A stretch of DNA of 64,000 nt from Candidatus Liptonbacteria bacterium (GTDB taxonomy: Bacteria; Patescibacteriota; Minisyncoccia; UBA6257; 2-01-FULL-56-20), in the NCBI GenBank assembly GCA_023244895.1, contig JAHFLL010000001.1, forward strand, positions 268,009 to 332,008. The letters are read 5' to 3'. The notes under the pieces were generated by a model. That model was not told the origin of the DNA. It did no database searches and saw only the letters and a program-made list of their open reading frames with translations. A program made the position numbers and the translations under genes. Below are positions 7,965 to 57,714 of this stretch, one piece after another. How positions within the stretch are numbered: the stretch's first letter is position 1; every line of letters starts with the position of its first letter.

Positions 7965-8500
7965 CAACTTGTCTAGTGAAGTCGGGTTCACTAGATATTA
8001 AACGAGAACAGACCGACACGCATCGGGCATGTGGGTCTGTTTCTTCTTGCTACTGCTCTTGCGTCAGAGTCCCAGGAGTCGTCGCACGACTCCGCGAGGA
8101 TCCCCGTCGCCTTTCTGAAAAAACTCGGTTGCCCGGACGGGGAGCTTGTCGTACTCCGCGTAAGACATCGAGCTTGTCATCAGCGTCGGTGTGTCGGGGC
8201 TCTCCGCTTGAACTACGGCGACCACCGTATCTCCGTAGGGTCCGGGCGGCATCCGGTAGTCCACGATTGCGAGCTTGAATGGCTGGCCCGCCGCTACTGC
8301 CTCACGGATCTTGGAGATGGCCTCCGTCGCCCCGCCGGCCGTGACGATCTCGATCTCCGCACCGATGGTCTCGAGAAGTGCCCTCATCCCCACGAGAGCG
8401 ATTGGCGTATCATCTACCACGAGAATGCGTCTTATCATGGTTCCTGCCCCCCCTCTCTCTTCTGGAGGCCATTATATTATCCATGTCTTTTAAGTCAATT
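7965..8500. other. GC-rich island A (about 65% GC), carries the orphan receiver gene
   Basis: Sharp compositional shift relative to flanks. Own SD and terminator (CAGACC...GGTCTG plus U-run). Confidence 0.5.
8064..8438 (-). CDS. Single-domain response regulator (CheY-like receiver), inside GC-rich island A
   Basis: Motifs LVVDD and AIVDYRMP. About 65% GC. SD-like GAGGGGGGG sits upstream of the ATG. Confidence 0.6.
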   Translation of the reverse strand: MIRRILVVDDTPIALVGMRALLETIGAEIEIVTAGGATEAISKIREAVAAGQPFKLAIVDYRMPPGPYGDTVVAVVQAESPDTPTLMTSSMSYAEYDKLPVRATEFFQKGDGDPRGVVRRLLGL

Positions 8501-9275: not shown

Positions 9276-9310
9276 TAAGAAACAACACTCATTCTCCTCT
9301 CGGAAGTTCC

Positions 9311-9356
9311 GAGGGGTGTCGGCAAACCGAGCCCCTCACGAGAGGGGCTCTTTGAT
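9311..9356 (+). promoter_or_regulatory. Alternative-hairpin (attenuator-like) element upstream of the GCS2-like gene
   Basis: GAGGGGT (9311-9317), GCCCCTC (9331-9337) and GAGGGGC (9342-9348). The middle segment can pair with either flank. The perfect 9 bp stem GAGCCCCTC/GAGGGGCTC is followed by TTTG. Confidence 0.4.
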
Positions 9357-9382
9357 ATTGGCAGAACAAGAGGGAGGACGAT

Positions 9383-10396
9383 ATGAACGCTAAGGACCTG
9401 GTCCAGTACTTCACGCGCGGACTGAACGGGCTCTATGAGCTCGGAACAACAATCGGGATTGAGGTTGAGACCCAGTTCGTGGATCTGGGTGGTCGTGCCA
9501 TCCGGACGGAAATCGCCCAGCAGATCTTCCGGGGTTTCGTCGCTAGCGGTTGGAGGGTCGTGACGCGCAAGGGCGAGTTGCTGACGGAATTAATCTCTCC
9601 CGGGAATGATAGGTTGCTCTACGAGCTTGGCCGGCACAATTTGGAAATCAGTGCCGCGCCACGTCCCGCCGACGCGGTCGTCCCTGCCGTCCTGCGCTTA
9701 CTGGCGGAACTTTACGGCCAGGCTTGGAACTTGGGCGTTCGTCCGCTTCTTGCTCCGATCTTGGAGACGGAAGAGGACCTCCTGGTCGTGCCGGACGAAC
9801 GGGACGCGCAATGGGTAAGGACAGACGGGCGAAGCGCGCTCAATAATCTAACCAGATGCTCGGCGGTGCAGTTTACTATCGATGTGCCGCTCAAGGACGC
9901 GATACGCTGCGTCAATGTTCTGAACGAGATGAAATACTCCTTCCTGAACGAGTATCCCCAGGAGGAGTTGTGGCGGCGCTATATCAAGGAATCAGCCGCC
10001 ACCTATTCTCCCAGCCGCTACGGCGGTCCGGATCGCTTCGCCGATCTGGATGATTACTGCGCGAAACTGGCCGAGCATGGCGTGGTGCGAGACGGTAGGG
10101 TGGTGCCGTGCGAGTCGGCGGGGGAGGTGGATATCCCGCTCTTCCTGCGTTCAGTCTGGTGGTACTTCAGATTGAAGCGTTATGGTCCGAAGCTTTGCCT
10201 GGAAGTGCGCCCGTTCGCGCGGGGCAGGGATTCGAAAATCCAGGAGGATCTGGATCGGGTGCTGCAAATTCTGGGCATCTCCGGTCGGGAGCGCATGGAG
10301 CGAACGGTCGCCAGCCTTCGGGACAGTCTTGAGACACTGAAGTTCCAGGCGGTCCGCCGGCCCGTGTCTCTCGATTGGCCTTCGGGTGGTCACTAA
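9383..10396 (+). CDS. Carboxylate-amine ligase (GCS2/YbdK-like) family protein, GC-rich island B
   Basis: N-terminal TIGIEVETQFVD resembles the YbdK GIELEMQ motif. About 62% GC. Strong SD GAGGGAGGA 5 nt before the ATG. Confidence 0.4.
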   Translation: MNAKDLVQYFTRGLNGLYELGTTIGIEVETQFVDLGGRAIRTEIAQQIFRGFVASGWRVVTRKGELLTELISPGNDRLLYELGRHNLEISAAPRPADAVVPAVLRLLAELYGQAWNLGVRPLLAPILETEEDLLVVPDERDAQWVRTDGRSALNNLTRCSAVQFTIDVPLKDAIRCVNVLNEMKYSFLNEYPQEELWRRYIKESAATYSPSRYGGPDRFADLDDYCAKLAEHGVVRDGRVVPCESAGEVDIPLFLRSVWWYFRLKRYGPKLCLEVRPFARGRDSKIQEDLDRVLQILGISGRERMERTVASLRDSLETLKFQAVRRPVSLDWPSGGH

Positions 10397-10408
10397 ATCG
10401 CAAAGTAG

Positions 10409-10445
10409 TTGGGGCCGGACATCGTAGTCCGGCCCAATTTTTATA
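10409..10445 (+). terminator. Rho-independent terminator
   Basis: TTGGGGCCGGAC-ATCGTA-GTCCGGCCCAA followed by TTTTT. Confidence 0.65.
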
Positions 10446-10514
10446 TAGAAATAAATCAAAACCACCGTCCATCTGGGCGAAGTCCGTTACTAATGTGTCC
10501 TGTTCTGATCTCCG

Positions 10515-11246: not shown

Positions 11247-11276
11247 TGCAGAGATTCTAACAGAAGGAGTCGGGAG
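11247..11276 (-). promoter_or_regulatory. sigma70-like promoter TTGAAT-17-TAGAAT for the RF gene
   Basis: Minus-strand TTGAATctcccgactccttctgtTAGAAT, followed by a 16 nt leader before the ATG. Confidence 0.5.
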
Positions 11277-11285
11277 ATTCAATCT

Positions 11286-11314
11286 GATTGACTCGTTTTT
11301 GTCTCGGAGGCATA
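11286..11314 (+). promoter_or_regulatory. Divergent promoter TTGACT-17-CATACT for the island C small peptide gene
   Basis: ttgactcgtttttgtctcggaggcatact, back-to-back with the RF promoter. Confidence 0.45.
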
Positions 11315-11337
11315 CTCTTTGTCAGGAGGGCAGGGCG

Positions 11338-11484
11338 ATGATACCTCACCCGGCGGTAGTATTCGGGCTTGATGCTGTTACGGTGCGACAGTTGATCGTG
11401 GCCGGCATCGCGGTCTGCGTCGTGTCCGTCGCCCTCGGAGTCGCGGGCGCGGCCGGACTCGTCTACCTCGTTTCTTTGATCTAG
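11338..11484 (+). CDS. 48-aa hydrophobic (single-TM) peptide, GC-rich island C
   Basis: Peptide MIPHPAVVFGLDAVTVRQLIVAGIAVCVVSVALGVAGAAGLVYLVSLI. SD CAGGAGGG 8 nt upstream. Confidence 0.4.
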   Translation: MIPHPAVVFGLDAVTVRQLIVAGIAVCVVSVALGVAGAAGLVYLVSLI

Positions 11485-11866
11485 AGCTCGGACAGGCGCG
11501 CATGGGGTATCCTACGCGCCACGGGATGTGTGTCCCATCCGGGGCGGGGATGCTCTGGTCGTGCTGTTCAGTGTTGCCTCTGGGTAAGCGGCATGCTTTG
11601 CCGCTCGGTCTTTGGGCAACATTGCTCAGTTGCGGACGACTGGAGCATCTCCGTGTTTTCACAAGTCTTGATTCGGTGGGCGGTCTTGCTACTGGCAGGC
11701 ATCACCGCTTGAGGCGTGTGACCTCAGCCGAATCATGGGGCGCGGTCTGGTGGATTACCCAGGCTAGGCAGGCGGGGCAATGAAGCCAGCCGCGCCCTCT
11801 CATAGCGACCTCCGGAACCTACGGGAACCGGGGGTTTTGACTTATTTAGGGTCATATTCCAGCCAC

Positions 11867-11894
11867 TTGACATGGGCTGTGGATATGCTATAAT
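11867..11894 (+). promoter_or_regulatory. Consensus sigma70 promoter TTGACA-16-TATAAT
   Basis: ttgacatgggctgtggatatgcTATAAT, a perfect match to both hexamers. Confidence 0.6.
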
Positions 11895-11900
11895 GCATCT

Positions 11901-12500
11901 CAAGTGGGCGAGTGGGGATTCTTGGTCGGCGTCGGCTCTACGGAGCTACTGGCCACCTTCCCTCCCGAGCCTGCGGCGCTTTCGCCGCGTCGACTCGAGC
12001 GAGCGGGGGATTTCTTGGGCAGATTCGTCTGACCCACCCCCTCGTCCACAACCCTGCCGGCGGGTTCCACCGGTAATCGTTCTTGCGGGGCACAGCGCCG
12101 TCGGCACCGCGCACCGCCCCAAGACCATACGGGCCTGACCACATGGCCCACATTGGAAGGGAGGAAGAAAGTTCCGAAACCGAGACGTAGACGTTTGTGG
12201 AGGAGGGAAGACCAAATCTACAGATGGGTCTCGGGATGGCTGATCCCCATCCGGACGCGCTTCAAGGGATAAAATCCTAGGGCTAATAACCCGAAGCGTG
12301 AAAGTAGGATCGCAGGTAAGTAGGCGACCCAAAGCAGGGCGCCACCAACGGAGGTAACCACTCGGGAGTTCGCACGACCTTCGGGCCGGCGACGAGACGA
12401 CGGGGCACGCGCGACACGCATCCGCCCCAAACCCGAGAGAGCGATACTTCCAATCGGCGCCCTGCTATAGTCAACGGCCCCAGAGCATCAAAGCTCGGGG
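11901..12500 (+). ncRNA. Candidate GC-rich structured non-coding RNA of unknown family (about 600 nt)
   Basis: Lies downstream of the consensus promoter. No plausible ORF on either strand, only overlapping Arg/Pro-rich artefacts. The 5' GGGGAUUCUUGGUCGGCGUCGG loosely resembles a tmRNA 5' end, but no tag ORF or T-arm was found. Confidence 0.25.
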
Positions 12501-12581
12501 TCGTTTGCGTTTTGGGGATATGGTTCGCCCTCCCTTTCCTTTCCTGCTAGAATAACTTTTACTGGAAGATATAAATAAGCC

Positions 12582-14119: not shown

Positions 14120-14374
14120 CTACTTAGAAGCTTTCTTGGCGCGCACCTTCTTGGTCTTCTTGGGCGCGGTAGAAGCGCTCGCTCGGCGAGCCTTAAACTT
14201 CTCAACTCTTCCGGCGGTATCAATAAGCTTGTTCTCGCCAGTGTAGAAAGGATGGCAATTACTGCATATTTCCACGCGTATCTCTTCTTTAGTGGCTCCG
14301 GTTGTGACCGTGTGGCCGCAAGCGCAGATTAGCTTTGCTTTAGGAAAATATTTAGGATGAATTTCGTTTTTCAT
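14120..14374 (-). CDS. rpmE: 50S ribosomal protein L31
   Basis: Motifs IHPKY, C..C...C..H and [15 protein letters not shown]. Confidence 0.85.
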
Positions 14375-14474
14375 AACGGGAGGATTTTCGCTGATTTTTG
14401 GTGAAAAGTCAAATCGGGCTGGCTTAAATAAAACATCTCCGCGCCGGACCCCCTATGGGTGCGGCGCGGTTGGG

Positions 14475-14726
14475 CTACTGGATCGCGCTCAGGATGGCAT
14501 CCAGGTCGACTGGCCGCATAGAGAGCAGATCGTTGCACGTGGGGTGGGTCCGATGGGCGTTTGCCGCGCACTCAATGCGGACCCCGACCGCGCCCGCCAT
14601 AACCCGGGTGCCGTCCTTCCTGATGAGGTAGACGGCAGTTTCGTCGCCGTCTATCCCGACGACGAGAGCTGCGACTGGGCCACCAGCCACGGCCTCCACA
14701 TCCGTACGACTCACGGTCATGTCCAT
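14475..14726 (-). CDS. 83-aa hypothetical protein, GC-rich island D
   Basis: SD AGGAGG 6 nt upstream. Own promoter-like TTGATT-17-TAATCT. Terminator hairpin CCGCGCCG...CGGCGCGG plus U-run. Confidence 0.4.
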   Translation of the reverse strand: MDMTVSRTDVEAVAGGPVAALVVGIDGDETAVYLIRKDGTRVMAGAVGVRIECAANAHRTHPTCNDLLSMRPVDLDAILSAIQ

Positions 14727-14881
14727 CTGGGCCTCCTGCTGGCTACAGATTAGAATCTAGAGTTCTTTAAATCAATAAAAAATTGTCCCCAAAAGGTTTG
14801 TAAAAATTCAGAACGGCTCCGGGCGCTTGTGCGCGGAGCCGTCTTGGCTTACTGAGCCCGGTCACCCCCATCCAGGTTGTC

Positions 14882-15055
14882 CTATGGCCTTGCGAGCCTT
14901 AGGAACCCCCTGATCAGTTCCTGTACCACATCGTTGCAGAGGTACAGGAACAGGCCACCGATCAGGCAGATCACGAGAATGGCTGCCGCAACCGTGAGGT
15001 GCTTGGCGGTGCGGGTTATCGTTATTCTGTCTTCGTCCGACATGTGCACGGACAT
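14882..15055 (-). CDS. 57-aa single-TM small protein, GC-rich island D (below the 60 aa ORF cutoff)
   Basis: Peptide MSVHMSDEDRITITRTAKHLTVAAAILVICLIGGLFLYLCNDVVQELIRGFLRLARP. SD GGAGGG 4-5 nt upstream. Promoter-like TTGACG-17-CATAAT. Terminator hairpin plus U-run. Confidence 0.4.
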   Translation of the reverse strand: MSVHMSDEDRITITRTAKHLTVAAAILVICLIGGLFLYLCNDVVQELIRGFLRLARP

Positions 15056-15146
15056 GCAACCCTCCTGCTGATTGAAGATTATGTTGAAATTTAGGCATGC
15101 GTCAAATAGGGGCCTAAAAGCCCTTTCACTCAGGGCGTAATCAGAC

Positions 15147-15175
15147 TTGACTTTGGGGTTCGGTCCGTCTAGAAT
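15147..15175 (+). promoter_or_regulatory. 16S rRNA promoter TTGACT-17-TAGAAT
   Basis: ttgactttggggttcggtccgtctagaat, about 300 nt upstream of the 16S 5' end. Confidence 0.6.
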
Positions 15176-15471
15176 ATACCTCGCGTCTGATATGGGCGGT
15201 CCCTGCTGAACCGACAGCTTTTTGATAATTGAGACCCGTCATCTTTCGACAATTCAAGATGATCCATCTTGAACGGAGTCGAAAGATAAAAACAATAAAT
15301 CAGAAATAAGAGTTTTCTAGTTGTCCCAATGACAAACCCGATGAATGTACTTTACAGACATCGGTTCCGATCACGGTTTTTCACGCAAGTGAACTTTGCG
15401 AATTTGCATGGTTACTCCATTTGCAAATTCGCGTAGTCATTTTATCTTCGGATAAAATGGGTCGCGATCTT

Positions 15472-17009
<1,538 letters not shown>

Positions 17010-17111
17010 GTCGAATATTTTTCTTTTGAAAAATATGGTGCGTAAGCATTTCAGTCATTTGGGCAGCTAGAAAACTCTGATTTAAAAAGGGACCGATTGG
17101 TCCGTGGAAAG

Positions 17112-17137
17112 TAGGCCTGGTCAAAGGCCTATTTTCT
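17112..17137 (+). terminator. Terminator after 16S
   Basis: TAGGCC-TGGTCAAA-GGCCTA followed by TTTTCT. Confidence 0.45.
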
Positions 17138-17156
17138 ATGCTACAATCAATAAACT

Positions 17157-17558
17157 ATGGAACCAGCCAAAGTGTTAATTATTGAAGACGACCACTTCTT
17201 ATCCTCTATTTTAAAGAGCAAATTAGAGAAGGAGGGGTTTGAGGTTCACCAGGCTTTTGATGGAGATGAGGGCTTGGCTATACTCCAGACTTTCAAGCCG
17301 AATCTGATTCTGCTGGATTTGATTATGCCGAAATTGTCCGGCTTTGATGTTTTGCAGCAAGTTTCGGTTGACCCGGAGCTTAGTCAGATACCAATAATGG
17401 TCGCGTCCAACTTAGGGCAGGACAGCGACATCCAGAAGGCAAAATCACTGGGCGCGATAGATTATTACGTGAAAGTGCGCACCTCTATTGACGAACTGGC
17501 TCAATTAGTGAAAAATGTGATAAACCAAAACGCAGCCAGTCAACCGAATCAAACTTAA
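17157..17558 (+). CDS. Single-domain response regulator (CheY-like receiver)
   Basis: Motifs KVLIIEDD, LLDLIMPKLSG and a conserved K. A -10 TACAAT sits 9 nt before the ATG. Confidence 0.75.
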   Translation: MEPAKVLIIEDDHFLSSILKSKLEKEGFEVHQAFDGDEGLAILQTFKPNLILLDLIMPKLSGFDVLQQVSVDPELSQIPIMVASNLGQDSDIQKAKSLGAIDYYVKVRTSIDELAQLVKNVINQNAASQPNQT

Positions 17559-17562
17559 AACT

Positions 17563-17871
17563 ATGATAAAAGAAGAAATTTTGCAGAAAATAAAACCGGG
17601 CGCCAAAGTTAAGGTTTGGGAAGGCGCGGCCACCGCTCCTTTTCAGGGCTTGGTTATCGCGCGCAAGCATGGCTCCGAAAAAGGAGCGACCTTCACGGTG
17701 CGCACAGTGCTCGCCGGCGTAGGCGTGGAAAAAGTTTATCCCATAAATACTCCTATTATTAGTAAGGTGGATATCGTCTCCAGCCCCAAGAAGATTCATC
17801 GTTCCAAGTTGTACTTCGTGCGCAAGGCTTCCGGCGCTAAAGTGAGAAGGAAGTTGGGAGTATCTGTTTAG
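17563..17871 (+). CDS. rplS: 50S ribosomal protein L19
   Basis: Motifs PGAKVKVWEG, TFTVR, GVGVEKVYPINTP and KLYFVR. Confidence 0.85.
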   Translation: MIKEEILQKIKPGAKVKVWEGAATAPFQGLVIARKHGSEKGATFTVRTVLAGVGVEKVYPINTPIISKVDIVSSPKKIHRSKLYFVRKASGAKVRRKLGVSV

Positions 17872-17916
17872 GATATAGGACTTAGTCTTTAGAACTTAGA
17901 AACGTATGAAATACAC

Positions 17917-17947
17917 AAACCCCGCCCGAGCGGGGTTTGTGGTTTGA
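17917..17947 (+). terminator. Rho-independent terminator after rplS
   Basis: AAACCCCGCCCGAGCGGGGTTTGTGGTTTG. Confidence 0.7.
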
Positions 17948-17984
17948 AAAACATTGATAGCTAGCTTATAATCCCGAACGTAAC

Positions 17985-18067
17985 GCGCGGGTGGCGAAAT
18001 GGCAGACGCACTACCTTGAGGTGGTAGCGCTCGTAAGGGCGTGGAGGTTCGAATCCTCTCCCGCGCA
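17985..18067 (+). tRNA. tRNA-Leu (anticodon GAG), type II with a long variable arm
   Basis: Acceptor GCGCGGG/CCCGCGC, anticodon loop TTGAGGT, T-arm GGAGGTTCGAATCCTCT. Confidence 0.85.
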
Positions 18068-18090
18068 CAATCTAATAAATAGTCACAACC

Positions 18091-21420: not shown

Positions 21421-21468
21421 AAAAACGGGAACAGGACGCGCAACGGGCGCATCCTGTCTTGTTCTGTT
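21421..21468. terminator. Bidirectional terminator between SDR and island E
   Basis: ACAGGACGCGC-AACGG-GCGCATCCTGT with T/A runs on both sides. Confidence 0.5.
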
Positions 21469-21471
21469 GCC

Positions 21472-21846
21472 CTAGGTGGGCGTCTCCTCTGGGAAGAGGA
21501 GTGTGCGCGTAGTGCATTTGTAAGTGTCCGCGCATCGCATTCCAACCTTACCCGCTTCTTGGAGCTTGGCTTGGATCTGCTTGTCCACTACGGCCCTTTG
21601 TGTCGCGTCGAGATCCTGCCATCCCGAACTAGACAAGGCCGCAATCATCGCATCGGCCACGACTTCGCCCATCAGGTGGCAATCTGATGATCCGAGTCCG
21701 TGGACCAGTCTTGATACCACTCCGGTGCGATAGCTGAACCTCGCTCCGATTCTTGACTTGGCAACGCTGAGTGAGCCACCTGACATCTCGTACGCAGTCC
21801 GGGCAGTTTCCACGAGTTCTTGCATTATCGCAATCGGTTCGGTCAC
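21472..21846 (-). CDS. 124-aa hypothetical protein (GTG start), GC-rich island E
   Basis: High-GC ORF with SD-like GGAAGGAAGG upstream. No recognisable domain. Confidence 0.35.
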   Translation of the reverse strand: MTEPIAIMQELVETARTAYEMSGGSLSVAKSRIGARFSYRTGVVSRLVHGLGSSDCHLMGEVVADAMIAALSSSGWQDLDATQRAVVDKQIQAKLQEAGKVGMRCADTYKCTTRTLLFPEETPT

Positions 21847-21973
21847 GGCGACGCCTTCCTTCCTGATTGAGTGGGAGAGCTGAAAACAATTTTCTTAAAT
21901 TATTACCCTCCGGTCAATGTGTATAACTTGAATTTGGCTGGAAACCTGCTAGATTTTTTACCAGAGGTGACTC

Positions 21974-22183
21974 ATGGCGAAACAGTGGAAACTGTCTGCG
22001 GATGGAATGCCGCAGAGGCCCGCTCGGCCCCGCAGACCGGATGCGCCCGAAGTCCCCGCGACCCTAGGTGGCAGCTACCTCGCTTCCACCGCAGGCCTCG
22101 GAACCACCAGTCCTCCGCCGAAGTTGCGAGGACGCGCACGATACGGTAAAGGCGCGTCATTCCGAGGGTGGGAGGCGCAGTAG
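21974..22183 (+). CDS. 69-aa Pro/Arg-rich small protein, GC-rich island E (tentative)
   Basis: SD AGAGGTG 5 nt before the ATG. Promoter-like TTGAAT-16-TAGATT at ~21929. Terminator at 22201-22233. Composition is low-complexity, so it may instead be an ncRNA. Confidence 0.25.
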   Translation: MAKQWKLSADGMPQRPARPRRPDAPEVPATLGGSYLASTAGLGTTSPPPKLRGRARYGKGASFRGWEAQ

Positions 22184-22200
22184 AACGGGAAACGAAGATT

Positions 22201-22233
22201 GGCGGCGTCGCGAGTGACGCCGCCACGCTTTTT
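22201..22233 (+). terminator. Rho-independent terminator
   Basis: GGCGGCGTCGCGAGTGACGCCGCC followed by ACGCTTTTT. Confidence 0.65.
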
Positions 22234-22249
22234 ATTATAGAATTCACTC

Positions 22250-22894
22250 ATGCGCTACATAGTTGGCTTAGATGAAGTGGGGCGAGGCCCGCTGGCCGGG
22301 CCGGTGGTGGTTGCGGCTGCCCTTATAATGCAAAATGTAAAAATTAAAGATAAAAAATTGGGGATACCGAGGGATTCCAAAAAGCTCACCCCAAAACAGA
22401 GAGAGGATTGGGTCAGATATTTTGAAAATAATCCCAAGATTTTTTACGCCGTCGCGCAGGTTTCGCCCAGAGTGATAGATAAAATAAATATCTCCGCCGC
22501 AGCAAACCTAGCCGCTTGGCGGGCCTACGGTAGGCTAATTAAAAAATCAAAAATCCATCCTTCGTCTAACTACGAACGGGCGAGCAAAATTAAAAATGTG
22601 GGAGTGTTCCTGGATGGGGGGTTGTATCTAAAGAAAAAAGGATTTTATCCTGGCGCGAAAACCATTATAAAAGGGGACCAGAAAATACCAGCGATTTCTA
22701 TCGCATCCATTATCGCCAAGGTCTATCGGGATGATTTAATGAACAAAATGGCAAAGAAGCATCCCGGGTATGGATTTGAAATTCATAAAGGCTATGGCAC
22801 CAAGGCTCATTATTCCGCTTTAAGAAAATTGGGTCCTTCCGAAATCCATCGGTTGACGTTTTTGGGAAAAAAACATAAAATCACAAAGTCGTAA
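22250..22894 (+). CDS. rnhB: Ribonuclease HII
   Basis: GLDEVGRGPLAGPVVVAA and DSKKL. Confidence 0.85.
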   Translation: MRYIVGLDEVGRGPLAGPVVVAAALIMQNVKIKDKKLGIPRDSKKLTPKQREDWVRYFENNPKIFYAVAQVSPRVIDKINISAAANLAAWRAYGRLIKKSKIHPSSNYERASKIKNVGVFLDGGLYLKKKGFYPGAKTIIKGDQKIPAISIASIIAKVYRDDLMNKMAKKHPGYGFEIHKGYGTKAHYSALRKLGPSEIHRLTFLGKKHKITKS

Positions 22895-28065: not shown

Positions 28066-28112
28066 GTAAAAACGATTTGGCTCCACCCCGGACGGGTGGA
28101 GCCTTGTCGATC
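28066..28112. terminator. Bidirectional terminator shared by efp and the island F gene
   Basis: GGCTCCACC-CCGGACG-GGTGGAGCC flanked by an A-run and a T-rich run. Confidence 0.6.
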
Positions 28113-28116
28113 TTAC

Positions 28117-29004
28117 TTAGGGGTCGGGTATATACGTCCCGCAGTTTGGACATTTGTACCCGTGCCCATTGCGGTACATGACCGCGTCGCAATCATCGCA
28201 CTTCCTATCTCCGTGCACGGGCTCTTTCTCTCCGTTTACGCCCGCGCAGAAACGAGCTTCGGGAGACAGGAATTCGATCGCCAGCCACCGGAAGACGTAG
28301 TCCACGATGGACTTCGCGAACCGAATCTTCGGATGTCTGGTCATCCCCGACGGTTCGAAACGCATGTGGCTGAACCTGTCTACCAGCGTCTCGAGAGGTA
28401 CGCCGTACTGCAGGGCAATTGTGATTGCACTGGCAAACGCGTCCGCGAAGCCCGAGATCATCGAGTCCCCGTTGGCCATCACGAGGAACAAGTCGGCGGG
28501 CTTGCCGTCTTCGTATCGCCCGACGGTTACGTAGCCCTGGTGGCCACCGATGTCGAACTTGTGGGAGAGGGCGCGTCTGTCTTCAGGTGGTCTGCGGCGC
28601 TCAACATCCATCCGTCTGGATGCCTTGGCGAGATCGCCAAACTTCAGATCCAGCCACCGGAAGATGTAGTCCGCGATGGATTTTGCGAATCCAATTCGCG
28701 GATGCTTGGTCATCCCGGATGGCTCGAAGCGCATGTGGCTGAACCTGTCTACCAGCGTCTCGAGAGGGACGCCGTACTGTAGGCAGTACGACACCGCCCG
28801 CGCGAATGCGTCCGCGAAGCCGGAGAGGGTTGACCCCTCCTTAGCCATCACGAGGAACAGCTCTCCGAGAGTGCCGTCCTCGTAGAAGCCTACCGTGATG
28901 TAGACTTTGTGCCCACCGATTTTAACTCGGTGCACGAGCGCGTTGCGCTCGTCCGGTAGCGTCCGCCGGAGGGGCGGGTTTACTAACGAGCTGCTAGCGC
29001 TCAT
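28117..29004 (-). CDS. Tandem-duplicated (~130 aa x2) domain protein resembling the class II ribonucleotide reductase C-terminal (TSCPD-like) domain, with C-terminal zinc ribbon. GC-rich island F.
   Basis: Two repeats share ...GGH.GY.TVG.YEDG...LFLVMA...SGFADAFA.A....LQYGVPLETLVDRFSHMRFEPSGMT.HP.I.FAKSI.DY.FRWL. The tail carries CDDCD...CPNCG. The antisense 241-aa ORF is rejected. Confidence 0.4.
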   Translation of the reverse strand: MSASSSLVNPPLRRTLPDERNALVHRVKIGGHKVYITVGFYEDGTLGELFLVMAKEGSTLSGFADAFARAVSYCLQYGVPLETLVDRFSHMRFEPSGMTKHPRIGFAKSIADYIFRWLDLKFGDLAKASRRMDVERRRPPEDRRALSHKFDIGGHQGYVTVGRYEDGKPADLFLVMANGDSMISGFADAFASAITIALQYGVPLETLVDRFSHMRFEPSGMTRHPKIRFAKSIVDYVFRWLAIEFLSPEARFCAGVNGEKEPVHGDRKCDDCDAVMYRNGHGYKCPNCGTYIPDP

Positions 29005-29126
29005 CCTCTTTATCTTCCTTTCTGGTTTAACAGCTGACTTTCTTATATCAGAATATAATTTAAAGTCAAATCCGGGTTCCGCTATCCTTGTCTTTTTGCC
29101 AAGATGTTCAATAATTTGGAAGTTAC

Positions 29127-30324: not shown

Positions 30325-30846
30325 ATGGAAGAGATAGAGCTAACATATCTAGCGAAAAATTTACCAGATGGCATTTTGGAATTCCCCAGCAAGGAGATTT
30401 TGGATATTTATCTTCCGTCTTCCGCGGTTCATCCCGGGCTACGCATCCGAAAGTCGGGAGATAAATACGACATAACCAAAAAGCGTCCGCTAAAGGAGGG
30501 CGACTCTTCTTATCAGCTGGAAACGACCGTACCTCTTACCCCCGAAGAATATTCGGAAATAAGCACGCTCCCGGGCAAGAGGGTCCGCAAGATTCGTTAC
30601 TATTACGAGCAGAATGGTGCGAGCTATGAAGTAGACGTTTTCAAAGATAATCTGGAGGGCCTGGTCTTGGTGGATATTGAGTTCAAGACCGTGGAGGAAA
30701 AAGATAGTTTTGTAATGCCCGACTTCTGCCTGCGGGAAGTGACTCAGGAAACGTTTATTGCGGGAGGCATGGTCTGTGGCAAAAAGTACAGCGACCTAGA
30801 GGGTGACCTAGAGAGGTTTGGATATAAGCCATTATTTCTCAAATGA
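30325..30846 (+). CDS. CYTH-like (triphosphate tunnel metalloenzyme) domain protein
   Basis: EIELTY, RIRK and EVDVFKDNLEGLVLVDIEF acidic motifs. Stop overlaps the next start (ATGA). Confidence 0.45.
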   Translation: MEEIELTYLAKNLPDGILEFPSKEILDIYLPSSAVHPGLRIRKSGDKYDITKKRPLKEGDSSYQLETTVPLTPEEYSEISTLPGKRVRKIRYYYEQNGASYEVDVFKDNLEGLVLVDIEFKTVEEKDSFVMPDFCLREVTQETFIAGGMVCGKKYSDLEGDLERFGYKPLFLK

Positions 30847-55029: not shown

Positions 55030-56869
55030 TATGAAAAAAATAATTAGTCTTACTCCGGTCTTGGTGCTGTCTTTAGGGTTAATGATCAGCTCCGCGATAG
55101 TCGCTTTTGCGCAGGTTTCTGTGACCGCGACTCCGGCAGGAGTAACAGTGGGGGCAGCTCCGGCGGGGGTAATTTTCCCGATAGCGGAACTTGGTAATTG
55201 TAAAAATCAGGGTGACTGCAAGTCTTATTGTAATAAGAAAGAAAATATTCAGGCCTGCGTCGGTTATGCCGAGAAAAACGGCATGATGTCCGCGCAAGAT
55301 GCCGCCCAGGCGCGCGAGTTCGCGGACGCGTTAGCAGGGGAAGCACCGGGTGGGTGTCAAGATAAAAAGACCTGCGAAAAGTATTGCGCGGATATTTCTC
55401 ATTTGGATGAGTGCGTGGCTTTCGCGGAAAAGCATAATTTTGTGGACAAGGGCGACTTGGCGGTAGCTAAAAATATCGCCAAAGCGTTAAAGAGCGGCAA
55501 GAAGCTGCCAGGCGGATGCAGCAGCCAGGCTTCTTGTAACAACTACTGCGAGAATACCGAGCACGCGGAAGAGTGTATCTCTTTCGCGGAGGGAACGGGA
55601 ATTCTCTCAGACGCGGATTTAGCAGAAGCTAAGAAGGTTCTGCCTCTCATAAAGGCGGGCAAGGCGCCGGGCGGGTGTAAAACTAAGACGGAATGTAAGG
55701 CCTACTGCGAAGCGGATGGTCATTTTGAGGAGTGTATCTCTTTCGCGGAGGAGGCTGGCTTTGTGGATAAAGAGGAAGCTGTGATGGCTCGTAAAACCGG
55801 AGGTAAGGGACCGGGTGGGTGCAAGTCTAAGGCTGCTTGCGAGGACTACTGCAATAAATCGGAAAATGCCGCCACCTGTTTTAATTTCGCCAAAGAGAAA
55901 GGACTTCTTTCCGAGAAAGAGGTAAAAGAAATAGAAGATGGTATGGGTCGTTTGCGCTCGGGATTAAGCCAGATGCCGCCCGAGATGGTGGATTGCTTGA
56001 AAGAAGGTTTGGGCGCGGATTCGGTTTCTAAAATTGAAGCCGGGACGTTAATTCCGGGTCCGAAAGTTGGCGAAATGGTTAAGGCTTGCGTTAGTAAATC
56101 TCTGCCCAAATTAAAAGAGAAGATGAATTCTGCCATGAAGATGGCGACGCCGGAAGTAAAGGCGTGTTTGGAGCAGGGCGGAATTAATGAGGCGGAGTTA
56201 GAAAAAATACAGAACGGCGAGGCGCCTAGCCCGAGCCTAGGAGACGTGATGAAGAAATGTTTCAACGTCTTGAAGAAAGAGGGGCTAGATAAAGCTCGGG
56301 CGGGTCTGGCTAAAATGCCGCCCCAGATGCGCCAGTGCGTGGAAGATAAACTGGGTGCGGATGTTTTACGTAAGATAGCGAATGGCGAAGATGTGGAGGC
56401 TGGCGCGGAAATGGGGGAGGCGTTTGAGTCTTGCGTGCAAAATGCGGCTGGAGCCGCCGGGGAACAGTTCAAGAACGCACAAATTCCAGCCGGGGCTAAA
56501 AAGTGCATTGAAGATAAGCTGGGCATGGATGTTCAGAGCGCGGTAAATGCCGGAAAGATAAGCGGACCGGAAGAGGTTCAAAAATTGATAATGGAGTGTA
56601 TGAAGGGGGCTATCCCGGGCGGAGCACCTAGTGGTGCGGGTGGTCCTCCGGATGGTACCCGAATGGGTCCTCCAGCAGGGACAGATATGGGTCCACCGCC
56701 CGGCATGGGTATGGGTGGTCCGGTTCCAGCTCCGGGAGGTCCTGGTGCGGGTGGTCCGCCTGCGGGAGGTGGCGGTCCGGACTGCTCTCAGTTTGCATCC
56801 GCTCCATCTTGCGACTATGTCCCAGCCGGTCAGCCCCAGGAGATGTGCAAGAAGTGCAGGGGACAATAA
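55019..56869 (+). CDS. Secreted modular Cys-rich repeat protein with Gly/Pro-rich C-terminal tail
   Basis: Signal peptide. Six ~45-aa modules (PGGC..K..C..YC......EC..FAE..G). Three or four second-type modules (MPP.M..C.E..LGAD). Poly-G/P tail ending in C-rich CSQFASAPSCD...CKKCRGQ. Confidence 0.5.
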   Translation: MENNMKKIISLTPVLVLSLGLMISSAIVAFAQVSVTATPAGVTVGAAPAGVIFPIAELGNCKNQGDCKSYCNKKENIQACVGYAEKNGMMSAQDAAQAREFADALAGEAPGGCQDKKTCEKYCADISHLDECVAFAEKHNFVDKGDLAVAKNIAKALKSGKKLPGGCSSQASCNNYCENTEHAEECISFAEGTGILSDADLAEAKKVLPLIKAGKAPGGCKTKTECKAYCEADGHFEECISFAEEAGFVDKEEAVMARKTGGKGPGGCKSKAACEDYCNKSENAATCFNFAKEKGLLSEKEVKEIEDGMGRLRSGLSQMPPEMVDCLKEGLGADSVSKIEAGTLIPGPKVGEMVKACVSKSLPKLKEKMNSAMKMATPEVKACLEQGGINEAELEKIQNGEAPSPSLGDVMKKCFNVLKKEGLDKARAGLAKMPPQMRQCVEDKLGADVLRKIANGEDVEAGAEMGEAFESCVQNAAGAAGEQFKNAQIPAGAKKCIEDKLGMDVQSAVNAGKISGPEEVQKLIMECMKGAIPGGAPSGAGGPPDGTRMGPPAGTDMGPPPGMGMGGPVPAPGGPGAGGPPAGGGGPDCSQFASAPSCDYVPAGQPQEMCKKCRGQ

Positions 56870-56957
56870 CTAGTAACCAGTAGTTAGTAGATAGAAGTTA
56901 GAAGTTAGAAGATAGAATGTAGAAGTTGGAATAAAGAGAGGGGACGGGAATGAGTAA

Positions 56958-56990
56958 TGGCCGAGCGCGATGTTTTGCGCTCGGCCATTG
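56958..56990. terminator. Bidirectional hairpin terminator
   Basis: GGCCGAGCGC-GATGTTTT-GCGCTCGGCC. Confidence 0.5.
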
Positions 56991-57012
56991 CCGTTCTCTT
57001 GCCGTCTTCCGT

Positions 57013-57516
57013 TTACCGCTGCTCGGCTGCGACAGGCGGCCAAGCGGGCGGGACGACCGGACGGACGGGCCGACCGGCTTCTTCCGCCAGGTAGTCCTTG
57101 AAGCTGATTCGACCGTCCTGAGCGGACGAGCGTCGCAGAGCAAAGTCGTACTCGCGCGCCCAGTCTACGACGGCGAAGAACTTGGCGGTGGCAGCCTTGA
57201 ATCTGGATTCGTAGGACCTGAGGTTGTCCTCCAGGGACTGGGTGTCCCAGATTTCCGACTCTGCCGCCGCGCGAAGCCGCTTCTGGAGGAGGCCGATGCC
57301 CTTACTCCAGGCCTCACACTCGCGTGCGAGCTTGACGAGTCTCGCGTCCATGTCCTCGTCCGAGAGGAGTTGGTGCACCACCGCCATGGTCTTCTTGATG
57401 AACCGACTACGCACCGCGCTGGCCGCAATGGACCAGGTTATGGCGCCGGTCAAGATGGAGAAAAAGACAAGGAGCGCCAGCTGAACCTCACGCGTGATGT
57501 CCATATCCAAGCTCAT
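57013..57516 (-). CDS. 167-aa membrane-anchored coiled-coil protein, GC-rich island G
   Basis: N-terminal TM, then charged helical region. SD CGGGGGT 5 nt upstream. About 62% GC. Confidence 0.4.
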   Translation of the reverse strand: MSLDMDITREVQLALLVFFSILTGAITWSIAASAVRSRFIKKTMAVVHQLLSDEDMDARLVKLARECEAWSKGIGLLQKRLRAAAESEIWDTQSLEDNLRSYESRFKAATAKFFAVVDWAREYDFALRRSSAQDGRISFKDYLAEEAGRPVRPVVPPAWPPVAAEQR

Positions 57517-57714
57517 ATGTACCCCCGAGACACTCTTTGCTTGATTGCCATCCGGAGATTTGCTCCAGAGAGGGACGATTTGCGCCCCTAAAGAGTCTGG
57601 CCAAAGAATATATGTTTATTGAAAAATGTCAATGGTAACTGAGTCAATAAAGACAGCAAGCAGATTATTAATAATTGATTATTAATTACTGTTATAATAA
57701 GATGGTTCCGCGAT

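Follow-up and report, generated by a model that had tools for sequence, protein, structure and literature searches.

Two small open reading frames (ORFs) of 57 and 83 amino acids, both on the minus strand, occupy the gap between rpmE and the promoter of the 16S rRNA gene in this genome, and the locus raises the question of whether they are genes at all, whether they form a functional pair, and how their products could be translated. An earlier note on this DNA had described them as two independent minigenes placed in the space that separates the rpmE promoter from that of 16S, each with its own promoter, Shine-Dalgarno (SD) sequence and stem-loop terminator, and had likened them to small toxin or membrane-peptide modules. 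Both ORFs are present in the ORF listing with the lengths given there. The window, as the term is used here, is the whole stretch of DNA that was analysed, 64,000 nucleotides in length, and the features of the locus are as follows.

14120..14374, minus strand: rpmE (ribosomal protein L31, PF01197), reaching 14412 with its promoter (TTGACT-17-GAAAAT)
14423..14469, minus strand: predicted terminator of the 83-aa gene from folding, hairpin CCGCGCCGCACCCAUAGGGGGUCCGGCGCGG (14469..14439) followed by AGAUGUUUUAUUU
14475..14726, minus strand: 83-aa ORF, from the ORF listing
14732..14741, minus strand: leader of the 83-aa gene, CAGCAGGAGG, with GGAGG 5 nt before the ATG
14775..14747, minus strand: putative promoter of the 83-aa gene, TTGATT-17-TAATCT, weak (7/12) and under the scan thresholds
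14747..14812, minus strand: conserved junction block, ACAAACCTTTTGGGGAcAATTTTTTA plus the 83-aa promoter
14800..14843, minus strand: predicted terminator of the 57-aa gene from folding, hairpin GACGGCTCCGCGCACAAGCGCCCGGAGCCGT (14843..14813) followed by UCUGAAUUUUU
14882..15055, minus strand: 57-aa ORF, from the ORF listing
15061..15070, minus strand: leader of the 57-aa gene, CAGCAGGAGG, with GGAGG 5 nt before the ATG
15078..15105, minus strand: promoter-like site of the 57-aa gene, TTGACG-16-CATAAT, 10/12 in a consensus scan
15147-15175, plus strand: 16S promoter, pointing away from the adjacent 57-aa promoter-like site
15470..17009, plus strand: 16S rRNA, from an RNA-family search
16996..17009, plus strand: 3' tail of the 16S rRNA, GGACCAAUUAAAUU, at RF00177 positions 1520-1533 of the cmscan alignment, the usual place of CCUCC

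The DNA that holds the two ORFs, here termed the islet, is unlike its neighbours in base composition. Its GC content is 57% over 14370-15058, with a peak of 66.5% when taken in 200-nt windows; the 64-kb window as a whole has 48.2%, and the flanks lie at 44-50% where the islet lies at 57-66%. The GC-rich DNA of the islet contains long ORFs in several frames, and its transcripts fold somewhat better than shuffled sequences (z = -2.0 and -2.9), both of which would be expected if the two ORFs had arisen by chance within a GC-rich structured non-coding RNA or spacer. This explanation is barely credible. The ORFs were judged to be more than chance because two further organisms, one a sister strain and the other a distant groundwater relative, have homologues of the same length at this site, and because only the annotated frames give full-length alignments in a six-frame comparison (E 2e-24 and 1.6e-9). 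Indels between homologues fall outside the ORFs or are multiples of three. GC content by codon position follows the coding pattern GC3 > GC1 > GC2 in both ORFs (GC1/2/3 of.55/.38/.76 for the 57-aa ORF and.69/.46/.77 for the 83-aa ORF), dN lies well below dS, and both products gave confident AlphaFold2 (AF2) models. An Rfam search of the islet returned noise only (snoZ206 at E 1.7 and CsrC at E 0.18), and the terminator hairpins supply most of the excess folding energy.

The homologues of the 57-aa protein are likewise 57 aa long, with 81% identity in the sister strain and 33% in the groundwater relative. The 83-aa protein is 98% identical in the sister strain and 48% identical to an 82-aa homologue in the relative (E 1.7e-14). 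With lengths so closely kept (57/57 and 83/82 aa) neither gene is a fragment of a larger disrupted gene, an outcome which the earlier note had named as one that would count against it, and the conservation it had asked for is found in both organisms. Purifying selection on the 83-aa gene is strong in comparison with the relative (pN.35, pS.74, p=6.5e-8; 63 changes at 181 nonsynonymous sites and 46 at 62 synonymous sites). For the 57-aa gene dN/dS is 0.40 against the sister strain (p=.026), and selection on this ORF is only modestly significant, at p=.026 and.098. From these alignments both small ORFs are evidently real protein genes under purifying selection, restricted to one lineage. Searches of 1.8-5.8 billion proteins recovered three members per family only (the window, the sister strain and the groundwater relative), and among these proteins and among phages, plasmids and viral contigs there were no homologues outside the lineage. 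Neither protein matched any family in Pfam, NCBIfam, PHROG or PADLOC, even at E<=10; tblastn of both returned nothing from phages or plasmids, and a sequence-profile search of the PDB gave nothing meaningful. When viral and metagenome contigs were scanned for the proteins and for the hairpin pattern, the same groundwater organism gave the sole matches. One match to a 2434-aa protein (E 1.4e-4) was rejected as spurious, as it covers just 41 residues inside Ig-like repeats. Relatives were also sought through a neighbouring ATP-grasp gene for an rpmE-16S gap without cassettes; the 38 loci so found are only ~60% identical, and the stretches retrieved contained neither rpmE, nor the small ORFs, nor any 16S gene.

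The description of the 57-aa product as a transmembrane (TM) peptide is borne out by hydropathy, which places a single TM segment at about residues 21-40 (KD19 of 2.74 at residues 22-40, and 2.5-3.0 across all three homologues), and by an AF2 model, built on a two-sequence alignment, which consists of a single long helix over residues 7-54 (pLDDT 85.8). The positive-inside rule predicts an N-in/C-out topology with a 17-residue amphipathic tail outside. A juxtamembrane motif, SD.D...ARTAK, is conserved in the family. Judged by its N-terminal acidic motif and its conserved 17-residue C-terminal tail, the peptide is more suggestive of a structural membrane protein than of a pore-forming toxin. 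The 83-aa product is modelled as a soluble alpha/beta protein of the order H-E-E-E-H-H-H (pLDDT 91.8), and structural comparison of this model gave no fold match. The family contains the invariant motifs VAGGPVAA and RIECAAxAH, and the invariant cluster of Cys53, His58 and Cys64 may form a metal or thiol site. Two candidate relationships were considered for the 83-aa protein and discarded: a TSCPD or NrdJ C-terminal-like domain, by comparison with the TSCPD protein of the window, and paralogy with the N-terminal domains of Zn-ribbon cassettes in the relative. Neither hhalign comparison was significant (probabilities of 0.1-0.4%, E 0.14-0.57).

Each of the two genes is predicted to be a self-contained transcription unit. 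The coordinates place both between the rpmE and 16S promoters, and both minigenes have the parts ascribed to them, a promoter-like site, a GGAGG leader and a hairpin with a T-run. The promoter hexamers TTGACG and CATAAT reported for the 57-aa gene are present (10/12), but are separated by 16 nt and not 17; those of the 83-aa gene are present with the reported spacing, but this site is weak. Stable hairpins with T-rich tails follow both ORFs, in keeping with the terminators proposed, and that of the 83-aa gene sits just upstream of the rpmE promoter. These elements have in general been retained while the ORFs diverged, with regulatory blocks 78-94% identical. The promoter block of the 57-aa gene is ~90% identical in the groundwater relative, and the 83-aa promoter keeps its position there as TTGAAT-17-TAAACT. 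The stem of the 83-aa terminator is identical in the sister strain and the relative, and its loop alone differs, while the 57-aa terminator has 82-90% identity to the hairpin copies of the relative. Positions 14732-14845 are 82% identical to 2681-2793 of the relative, although synonymous sites of the 83-aa gene are saturated.

The 57-aa peptide invites comparison with toxins. Type I toxin peptides such as Hok, Fst, TisB and Ldr are small and hydrophobic, and each has charged termini around a single TM helix. Like these, the 57-aa peptide is shorter than 60 aa, has a single TM helix with charged flanks, and is preceded by a strong promoter; the two small genes also adjoin in this genome. It could thus be supposed that the peptide is a membrane-damaging toxin of the type I kind, with the 83-aa protein or an antisense RNA as its antidote. 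A toxin-antitoxin system of this sort is very unlikely. A consensus scan, which may miss non-canonical promoters, detected no plus-strand promoter-like site facing 14882-15055, even at 8/12, and neither an antisense promoter nor an overlapping RNA gene of the type I kind was seen. The proteins lack any toxin or antitoxin match in Pfam, NCBIfam and PADLOC. As regards type II systems, the two genes do not form an operon, since the 155-nt spacer between them holds both a T-run hairpin and another promoter-like site, nor are they kept together, their homologues being separated in the relative. The suggestion of a paired toxin or membrane-peptide module is thus not supported, in view of the separation of the genes in the relative, the terminator and promoter between them, the failure of the scan to detect an antisense promoter, and the want of a family match.

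In the relative the islet is bounded by the same 16S leader and rpmE but differs in content. Where the window has [57][83], the relative has [57-108fs][182][140][82][141], that is, six cassettes at the site in place of two. The 57-aa gene is there coupled to another ORF, of 108 aa and frameshifted, and the homologues of the 57- and 83-aa genes lie three cassettes apart (108, 182 and 140 aa), so that the same pair, which the earlier note had proposed to look for in other genomes, is not found side by side. The 57-aa gene is the anchor gene, with a conserved position beside the 16S promoter. The 83-aa gene has evolved out of step with rpmE, its synonymous divergence being lower than that of rpmE between strains (p=.0015) and higher between species (p=.0003). 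The aligned loci thus show a variable cassette content and, for the 83-aa gene, a history discordant with that of rpmE.

Variable content at a fixed site is also a property of integrons. Integron gene cassettes carry attC sites, are recombined by the integrase IntI at attI, and are without promoters. The islet resembles them as an array of short ORFs with a conserved imperfect palindrome (31-36 nt) 3' of four cassettes in the relative and of one here, with a cassette number that varies between species and with junctions 82-94% identical beside ORFs that are saturated or unrelated. The hairpin might therefore be taken for a recombination site and the gap between 16S and rpmE for a capture site. 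Such an integron-like, site-specific array is highly improbable. Among the called genes in and beside the islet, on any contig seen, there was no integrase, transposase, phage protein or other recombinase, and neither IntI nor attI was seen there. Unlike integron cassettes, each cassette here has its own promoter, and the short hairpin followed by a T-run is of the form of an intrinsic terminator. The 57-aa terminator hairpin is present as one copy only in the 64-kb window, and the hairpin pattern was found in one further organism in one metagenome scan and in no viral contigs. Tandem duplication with gene conversion is a simpler account of the repeats.

A closer parallel is found in the morons of phages, defined as independent transcription units that have been inserted among the genes of a phage (Cumby et al., 2012, PMC3594210). 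The islet shares with them short genes, each with its own promoter and factor-independent terminator (here as read from sequence), a deviant composition, variable presence between related genomes, and a history unlike that of the flanks. It differs in lying between the core chromosomal genes rpmE and 16S rRNA rather than in a prophage, with no phage genes nearby and no PHROG, phage or viral-contig match.

The earlier note had called both genes SD-driven. The motif GGAGG-N5-ATG is indeed present at both, but its partner is missing, and the claim is doubtful. The 16S rRNA ends in GGACCAAUUAAAUU where GGAUCACCUCCUUU is expected, and CCUCC is absent downstream of it as far as the processing stem at 17054. 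Core genes are in keeping with this: of 61 core ORFs just 3 are preceded by GGAG or GAGG, and in many core genes the -10 box lies 6-7 nt from the ATG, for which reason they are considered leaderless. Likewise rpmE is without an SD, and since its -10 box ends 9 nt from the ATG its mRNA would be near-leaderless. With a 16S rRNA that lacks CCUCC and core genes that are SD-free or leaderless, canonical SD:anti-SD pairing cannot drive translation here. Roughly half of Parcubacteria have a 16S rRNA without the CCUCC tail (Tsurumaki et al., 2022, PMC9297842), and the present genome resembles those in its 16S rRNA and in core genes without SD motifs. It departs from that account in a GC-rich minority class of genes that keep GGAGG-N5-ATG leaders, which is not described there. 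Purine-rich SD-like leaders precede all GC-rich islet genes examined, and beside core genes that lack them the GGAGG leaders lend the islet a foreign or exchanged character. The predicted 5' UTR of the 57-aa mRNA is only ~15 nt, and the GGAGG of its leader is retained in the sister strain and the groundwater relative; the 83-aa homologue in the relative has the leader GCTGGAGG-N5-ATG. In the comparison with the relative GGAGG-N5-ATG and the -10 box are kept, whereas the promoter spacer has diverged.

The mismatch between leaders and ribosome might be explained if the genes were recent imports that are transcribed but poorly translated or untranslated, and now decaying, with GGAGG and high GC as leftovers of an SD-using, GC-rich donor. 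The foreign-looking composition, the state of the 16S rRNA and core genes, and the frameshift in one cassette of the relative would all fit such decay. It is nonetheless quite unlikely, as both ORFs are intact and of the same length over strain- and species-level divergence, the 83-aa gene is under strong purifying selection, the leader and -10 box outlast the promoter spacer, and donor homologues are absent from every database searched.

The explanation that we favour, and hold to be probable without great assurance, is that both ORFs are genuine, translated, lineage-restricted genes carried in autonomous, moron-like cassettes of a variable GC-rich accessory islet. In one lineage of Parcubacteria (Patescibacteria) this islet fills the gap from which the 16S and rpmE promoters diverge, and it would evolve as whole cassettes are gained, lost, duplicated and exchanged, with the repeated hairpin-plus-promoter junctions as probable substrates for homologous recombination. 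The cassettes may be of horizontal origin; since no donor lineage, mobile-element gene or outside homologue was found, the case for this is made from composition and discordant divergence only. The 57-aa product would insert into the cell membrane as a single-pass peptide and the 83-aa product would be a compact cytoplasmic alpha/beta protein, the two acting independently and not as a pair. The short, purine-rich, 5'-proximal leader is assumed to be merely permissive for initiation.

A bolder proposal, which we consider unlikely, is that the GC-rich accessory cassettes, these two genes among them, keep GGAGG-N5-ATG under selection, either because GGAGG works independently of an anti-SD or because the cassettes are selected in an SD-using context, and that cassettes are exchanged at the conserved hairpin junctions, in an array of a new kind. 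In the first case a protein or some other rRNA element would read GGAGG, which would act in initiation or regulation; in the second, the cassettes would circulate by way of a different cellular context that uses SD sequences, for example a host or a shared mobile reservoir.

CPR bacteria are rich in unannotated small genes, most of them unchecked, and the two ORFs of fewer than 100 aa described here are real genes under selection. One falls under the usual 60-aa cutoff, the other has a confident predicted fold without a structural match, and the islet in which such genes are swapped in and out adjoins an rRNA promoter. Should GGAGG prove functional, these cassettes would provide a natural system in which to ask what an SD-like sequence does once its rRNA partner is gone, and a sequence marker of recently exchanged genes in these symbionts.

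The GC-rich gap between rpmE and the 16S promoter, hereafter the islet, is a real feature: its cassettes are accessory and autonomous, and the small proteins they encode are orphans. It spans about 650 nt; its GC content averages 57% and peaks at 66.5% in 200-nt windows, compared with 48.2% in the whole window. Both ORFs exist on the minus strand, exactly as an earlier note had given their sequences, and are wedged between the neighbors it named:

14120..14374, minus: rpmE
14475..14726, minus: 83-aa ORF
14882..15055, minus: 57-aa ORF
15147-15175, plus: 16S promoter, TTGACT-17-TAGAAT
15470-17009: 16S rRNA, bacterial

A 30-nt inverted repeat, 87% complementary (15304-15333 / 17054-17083), flanks the 16S gene and is likely its processing stem. 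Downstream (17010-18068) lie a 133-aa ORF and then tRNA-Leu rather than 23S, and no LSU rRNA is found anywhere in the 64-kb window; the rRNA genes are therefore unlinked. The window also holds RNase P RNA and three tRNAs, and an ATP-grasp gene near the islet has its closest relatives (~60% identity) in Parcubacteria/Paceibacterota/Kaiserbacteria-type MAGs, which places the bacterium in the Patescibacteria (CPR).

Both ORFs are genes. They are called as such in independent assemblies of the same strain and are intact at the same place in a sister strain (Logan contigs L001/L002; 93-95% nucleotide identity). Compared with that strain, 6 codon changes in the 57-aa ORF are synonymous and 11 nonsynonymous, and there is no indel, the only nearby one falling outside it; the 83-aa ORF has 2 synonymous and 2 nonsynonymous changes, and rpmE 13 and 0. 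When 1.84 billion representative proteins were scanned exhaustively with HMMER, the 83-aa protein gained a single additional relative, P0004 (82 aa, 48% identity, E 1.7e-14), from aquifer/groundwater metagenomes and again sited between the 16S 5' end and rpmE. At this relative's locus a 57-aa ORF directly adjoins the 16S promoter; its product is 33% identical to the window protein and shares with it the transmembrane (TM) segment and the motifs SD.D...ARTAK and FL..C.D. When the two islets are compared in all six frames, full-length alignments appear in the annotated frames only (E 2e-24 and 1.6e-9), other matches being short and confined to common hairpins and promoters. GC by codon position is gene-like (.69/.46/.77 for the 83-aa ORF,.55/.38/.76 for the 57-aa ORF). 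Nei-Gojobori counts with Fisher p show selection: for the 83-aa gene, comparison with the relative gives pN.35 and pS.74 (p=6.5e-8); for the 57-aa gene significance is modest, with dN/dS 0.40 in the sister-strain comparison (p=.026) and p=.098 in that with the relative. That the ORFs are non-coding is extremely improbable, and that they are decaying imports, not translated, is unlikely. Because lengths are conserved (57/57/57 and 83/83/82), neither is a fragment of a larger disrupted gene, an origin the earlier note had raised.

Hydropathy indicates one TM segment in 3/3 57-aa homologues (2.5-3.0 in a 19-residue window, KD19), and AlphaFold2 predicts a single long helix (pLDDT 85.8), in agreement with the TM peptide originally proposed. 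We conclude that the product is a single-pass membrane protein; its N-in/C-out topology is predicted from the flanks of the TM segment, basic on the N side (RTAK(H)) and acidic on the C side (ND/DD). The 83-aa protein is modeled, from three sequences only, at pLDDT 91.8 with topology H-E-E-E-H-H-H; its family invariants are VAGGPVAA, RIECAAxAH, C53, H58 and C64. We take it to be small, soluble and alpha/beta in fold, with a possible Cys/His site. Both proteins are orphans: Pfam, PHROG, NCBIfam and PADLOC scans gave no match, 5.8 billion clustered proteins, profile search included, held no other homologues, phages, plasmids, viral contigs and JGI metagenome contigs had no match beyond the groundwater relative, and a PDB sequence-profile search was empty. 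The two families are restricted to this lineage. A second TM peptide, described earlier as unrelated, indeed has no sequence kinship to the 57-aa peptide: its 48-aa ORF (11338-11484), in Island C (11288-11484, plus), has a single hydrophobic segment (KD19 2.61). Upstream of this ORF stand TTGACT-17-CATACT and CAGGAGG-N9-ATG, and the gene calls of an independent assembly include it.

Each gene has its own promoter-like site, leader and 3' hairpin, as expected of two independent minigenes. The site of the 57-aa gene, TTGACG-16-CATAAT (its spacer 16 nt, not 17 as first reported), matches the -35/-10 consensus at 10/12 in the scan; that of the 83-aa gene, TTGATT-17-TAATCT, is present and weaker (7/12, under the scan thresholds). 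Both share an identical leader, CAGCAGGAGG, with GGAGG 5 nt before the ATG. A 13-bp-class hairpin and then UCUGAAUUUUU follow the 57-aa gene, and a long hairpin and then AGAUGUUUUAUUU the 83-aa gene. The pair had been likened to small toxin or membrane-peptide modules. A terminator and promoter separate the genes in the window, their homologues lie three cassettes apart in the relative, and a consensus scan, even when relaxed to 8/12, finds no promoter antisense to the 57-aa ORF. Given this separation and the scan result, the only positive support for the toxin/antidote reading is the small size and hydrophobicity of the peptide, and a toxin-antitoxin pair is quite improbable.

In the relative, the gap from the 16S leader to the rpmE promoter is ~2.8 kb. 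It accommodates six genes, each GC-rich (GC3.65-.78) and each preceded by a GGAGG leader. Among them, the 57-aa gene is translationally coupled to a 108-aa ORF, and the remaining genes encode proteins of 182, 140, 82 and 141 aa, the 140-, 141- and 182-aa proteins being paralogues with a terminal CxxC...CxxC zinc ribbon. In contig L043 (1002-1459), a stretch after the 108-aa ORF and out of its frame encodes a seemingly intact remnant of the zinc ribbon (CARCGAKMEKDG...C..C), either a frameshifted paralogue of these cassettes or a sequencing error. A 31-36-nt palindrome (GACGRCTCCGYGCAYANGYGCNCGGAGYC) lies 3' of four of the relative's cassettes and, in the window, 3' of the 57-aa gene. Identity among junctions (hairpin plus the promoter that follows) is 82-94%, whether the comparison is within or between species; the ORFs beside them are saturated at synonymous sites or unrelated. 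The islet is thus a variable cassette array; that it is an integron-like site-specific array is highly unlikely. Elsewhere in the window, a 295-aa protein (28117-29004, minus) combines two TSCPD domains (the type known from the C-terminus of ribonucleotide reductase) with a zinc ribbon at its own C-terminus that resembles those of the relative's cassettes (tblastn E 1.6e-4); within its gene, 28281-28414 and 28650-28783 form a direct repeat of 134 nt with 87% identity.

The 83-aa gene and the adjoining rpmE have discordant histories. Between strains (window versus L001/L002) its synonymous divergence is 8-fold lower (pS.03 versus.23, Fisher p.0015), whereas between species (window versus L042/L043) it is 2-fold higher (.74 versus.37, p.0003). 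A single rate difference cannot yield both contrasts, so the cassette must have undergone exchange or replacement separately from its flank, and on these comparisons its genealogy differs from that of rpmE 100 nt away. Phage morons have their own promoter and terminator, a composition unlike their flanks and variable presence (PMC3594210). The window cassettes share all these traits but lie between core chromosomal genes and have no phage signature. They are best read as two independent moron-like accessory cassettes, one for the single-pass membrane protein and one for the soluble alpha/beta protein, in an islet probably exchanged horizontally through recombination at the junctions and anchored beside the rRNA promoter.

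The 16S 3' tail (16996-17009) reads GGACCAAUUAAAUU where the model has GGAUCACCUCCUUU (cmscan alignment), and no CCUCC occurs from the tail to the processing stem at 17054-17083. A subgroup of Parcubacteria is reported to have lost the anti-SD motif (PMC9297842), and the window's tail matches that subgroup. GGAG/GAGG lies upstream of only 3/61 core ORFs, and in many first-in-operon core genes a strong -10 box ends 6-7 nt before the ATG (e.g., 2342, 22250, 30325, 36213, 46082 and 57845, plus, and 7941, minus; perfect TATAAT at 30325, 46082 and 57845), so that the mRNAs of these genes are probably leaderless; both features are consistent with anti-SD loss. rpmE (ATG 14374, minus), with 9 nt from the end of its -10 box to the ATG, is near-leaderless. 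In contrast to core genes, the GC-rich window genes examined, the 57- and 83-aa genes among them, have purine-rich SD-like leaders, with one exception. The others examined are these six, with GC3 of.60-.75:

8064-8438: response-regulator-like gene, 124 aa, SD-like leader
9383-10396: 337-aa gene, SD-like leader
11338-11484, plus: 48-aa TM ORF, SD-like leader
21472-21846: 124-aa ORF, GTG start, no purine-rich SD-like leader
28117-29004, minus: TSCPDx2-Zn-ribbon protein, SD-like leader
56950-57591: 213-aa gene, SD-like leader

Further GC-rich islets (57-59% GC) lie at 7999-8490, 9309-10452, 11251-12573, 21424-22335, 28083-29027 and 56279-57536. A perfect extended promoter, TTGACA-16-TGnTATAAT (12/12), stands at 11867-11894 (plus), and the ~640 nt of GC-rich sequence after it (feature 11867-12545, plus) have no convincing ORF. 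Their predicted fold far exceeds that of shuffled sequences in stability (z = -4.95), and Rfam gives nothing at E<=1; the stretch is a candidate for a large structured non-coding RNA.

CAGGAGG precedes the ATG of an intergenic ORF only three times in the window, at the 48-, 57- and 83-aa ORFs. Between species the promoter spacer of the 83-aa gene has diverged, with TAAnCTGTrGCyAGCwGGAGG-N5-ATG kept, so this is a real motif, apparently conserved. It cannot act by pairing with the window 16S tail; in the relative, the contigs cover only the 5' part of the 16S gene. Of the earlier 'SD-driven', the GGAGG 5 nt before the ATG stands and the pairing does not. The motif may be left over from a donor context and constantly refreshed by exchange; alternatively, it may have a role that needs no anti-SD. 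The most novel aspect of the locus is this conserved GGAGG leader in an anti-SD-less organism, together with the conserved hairpin junctions.
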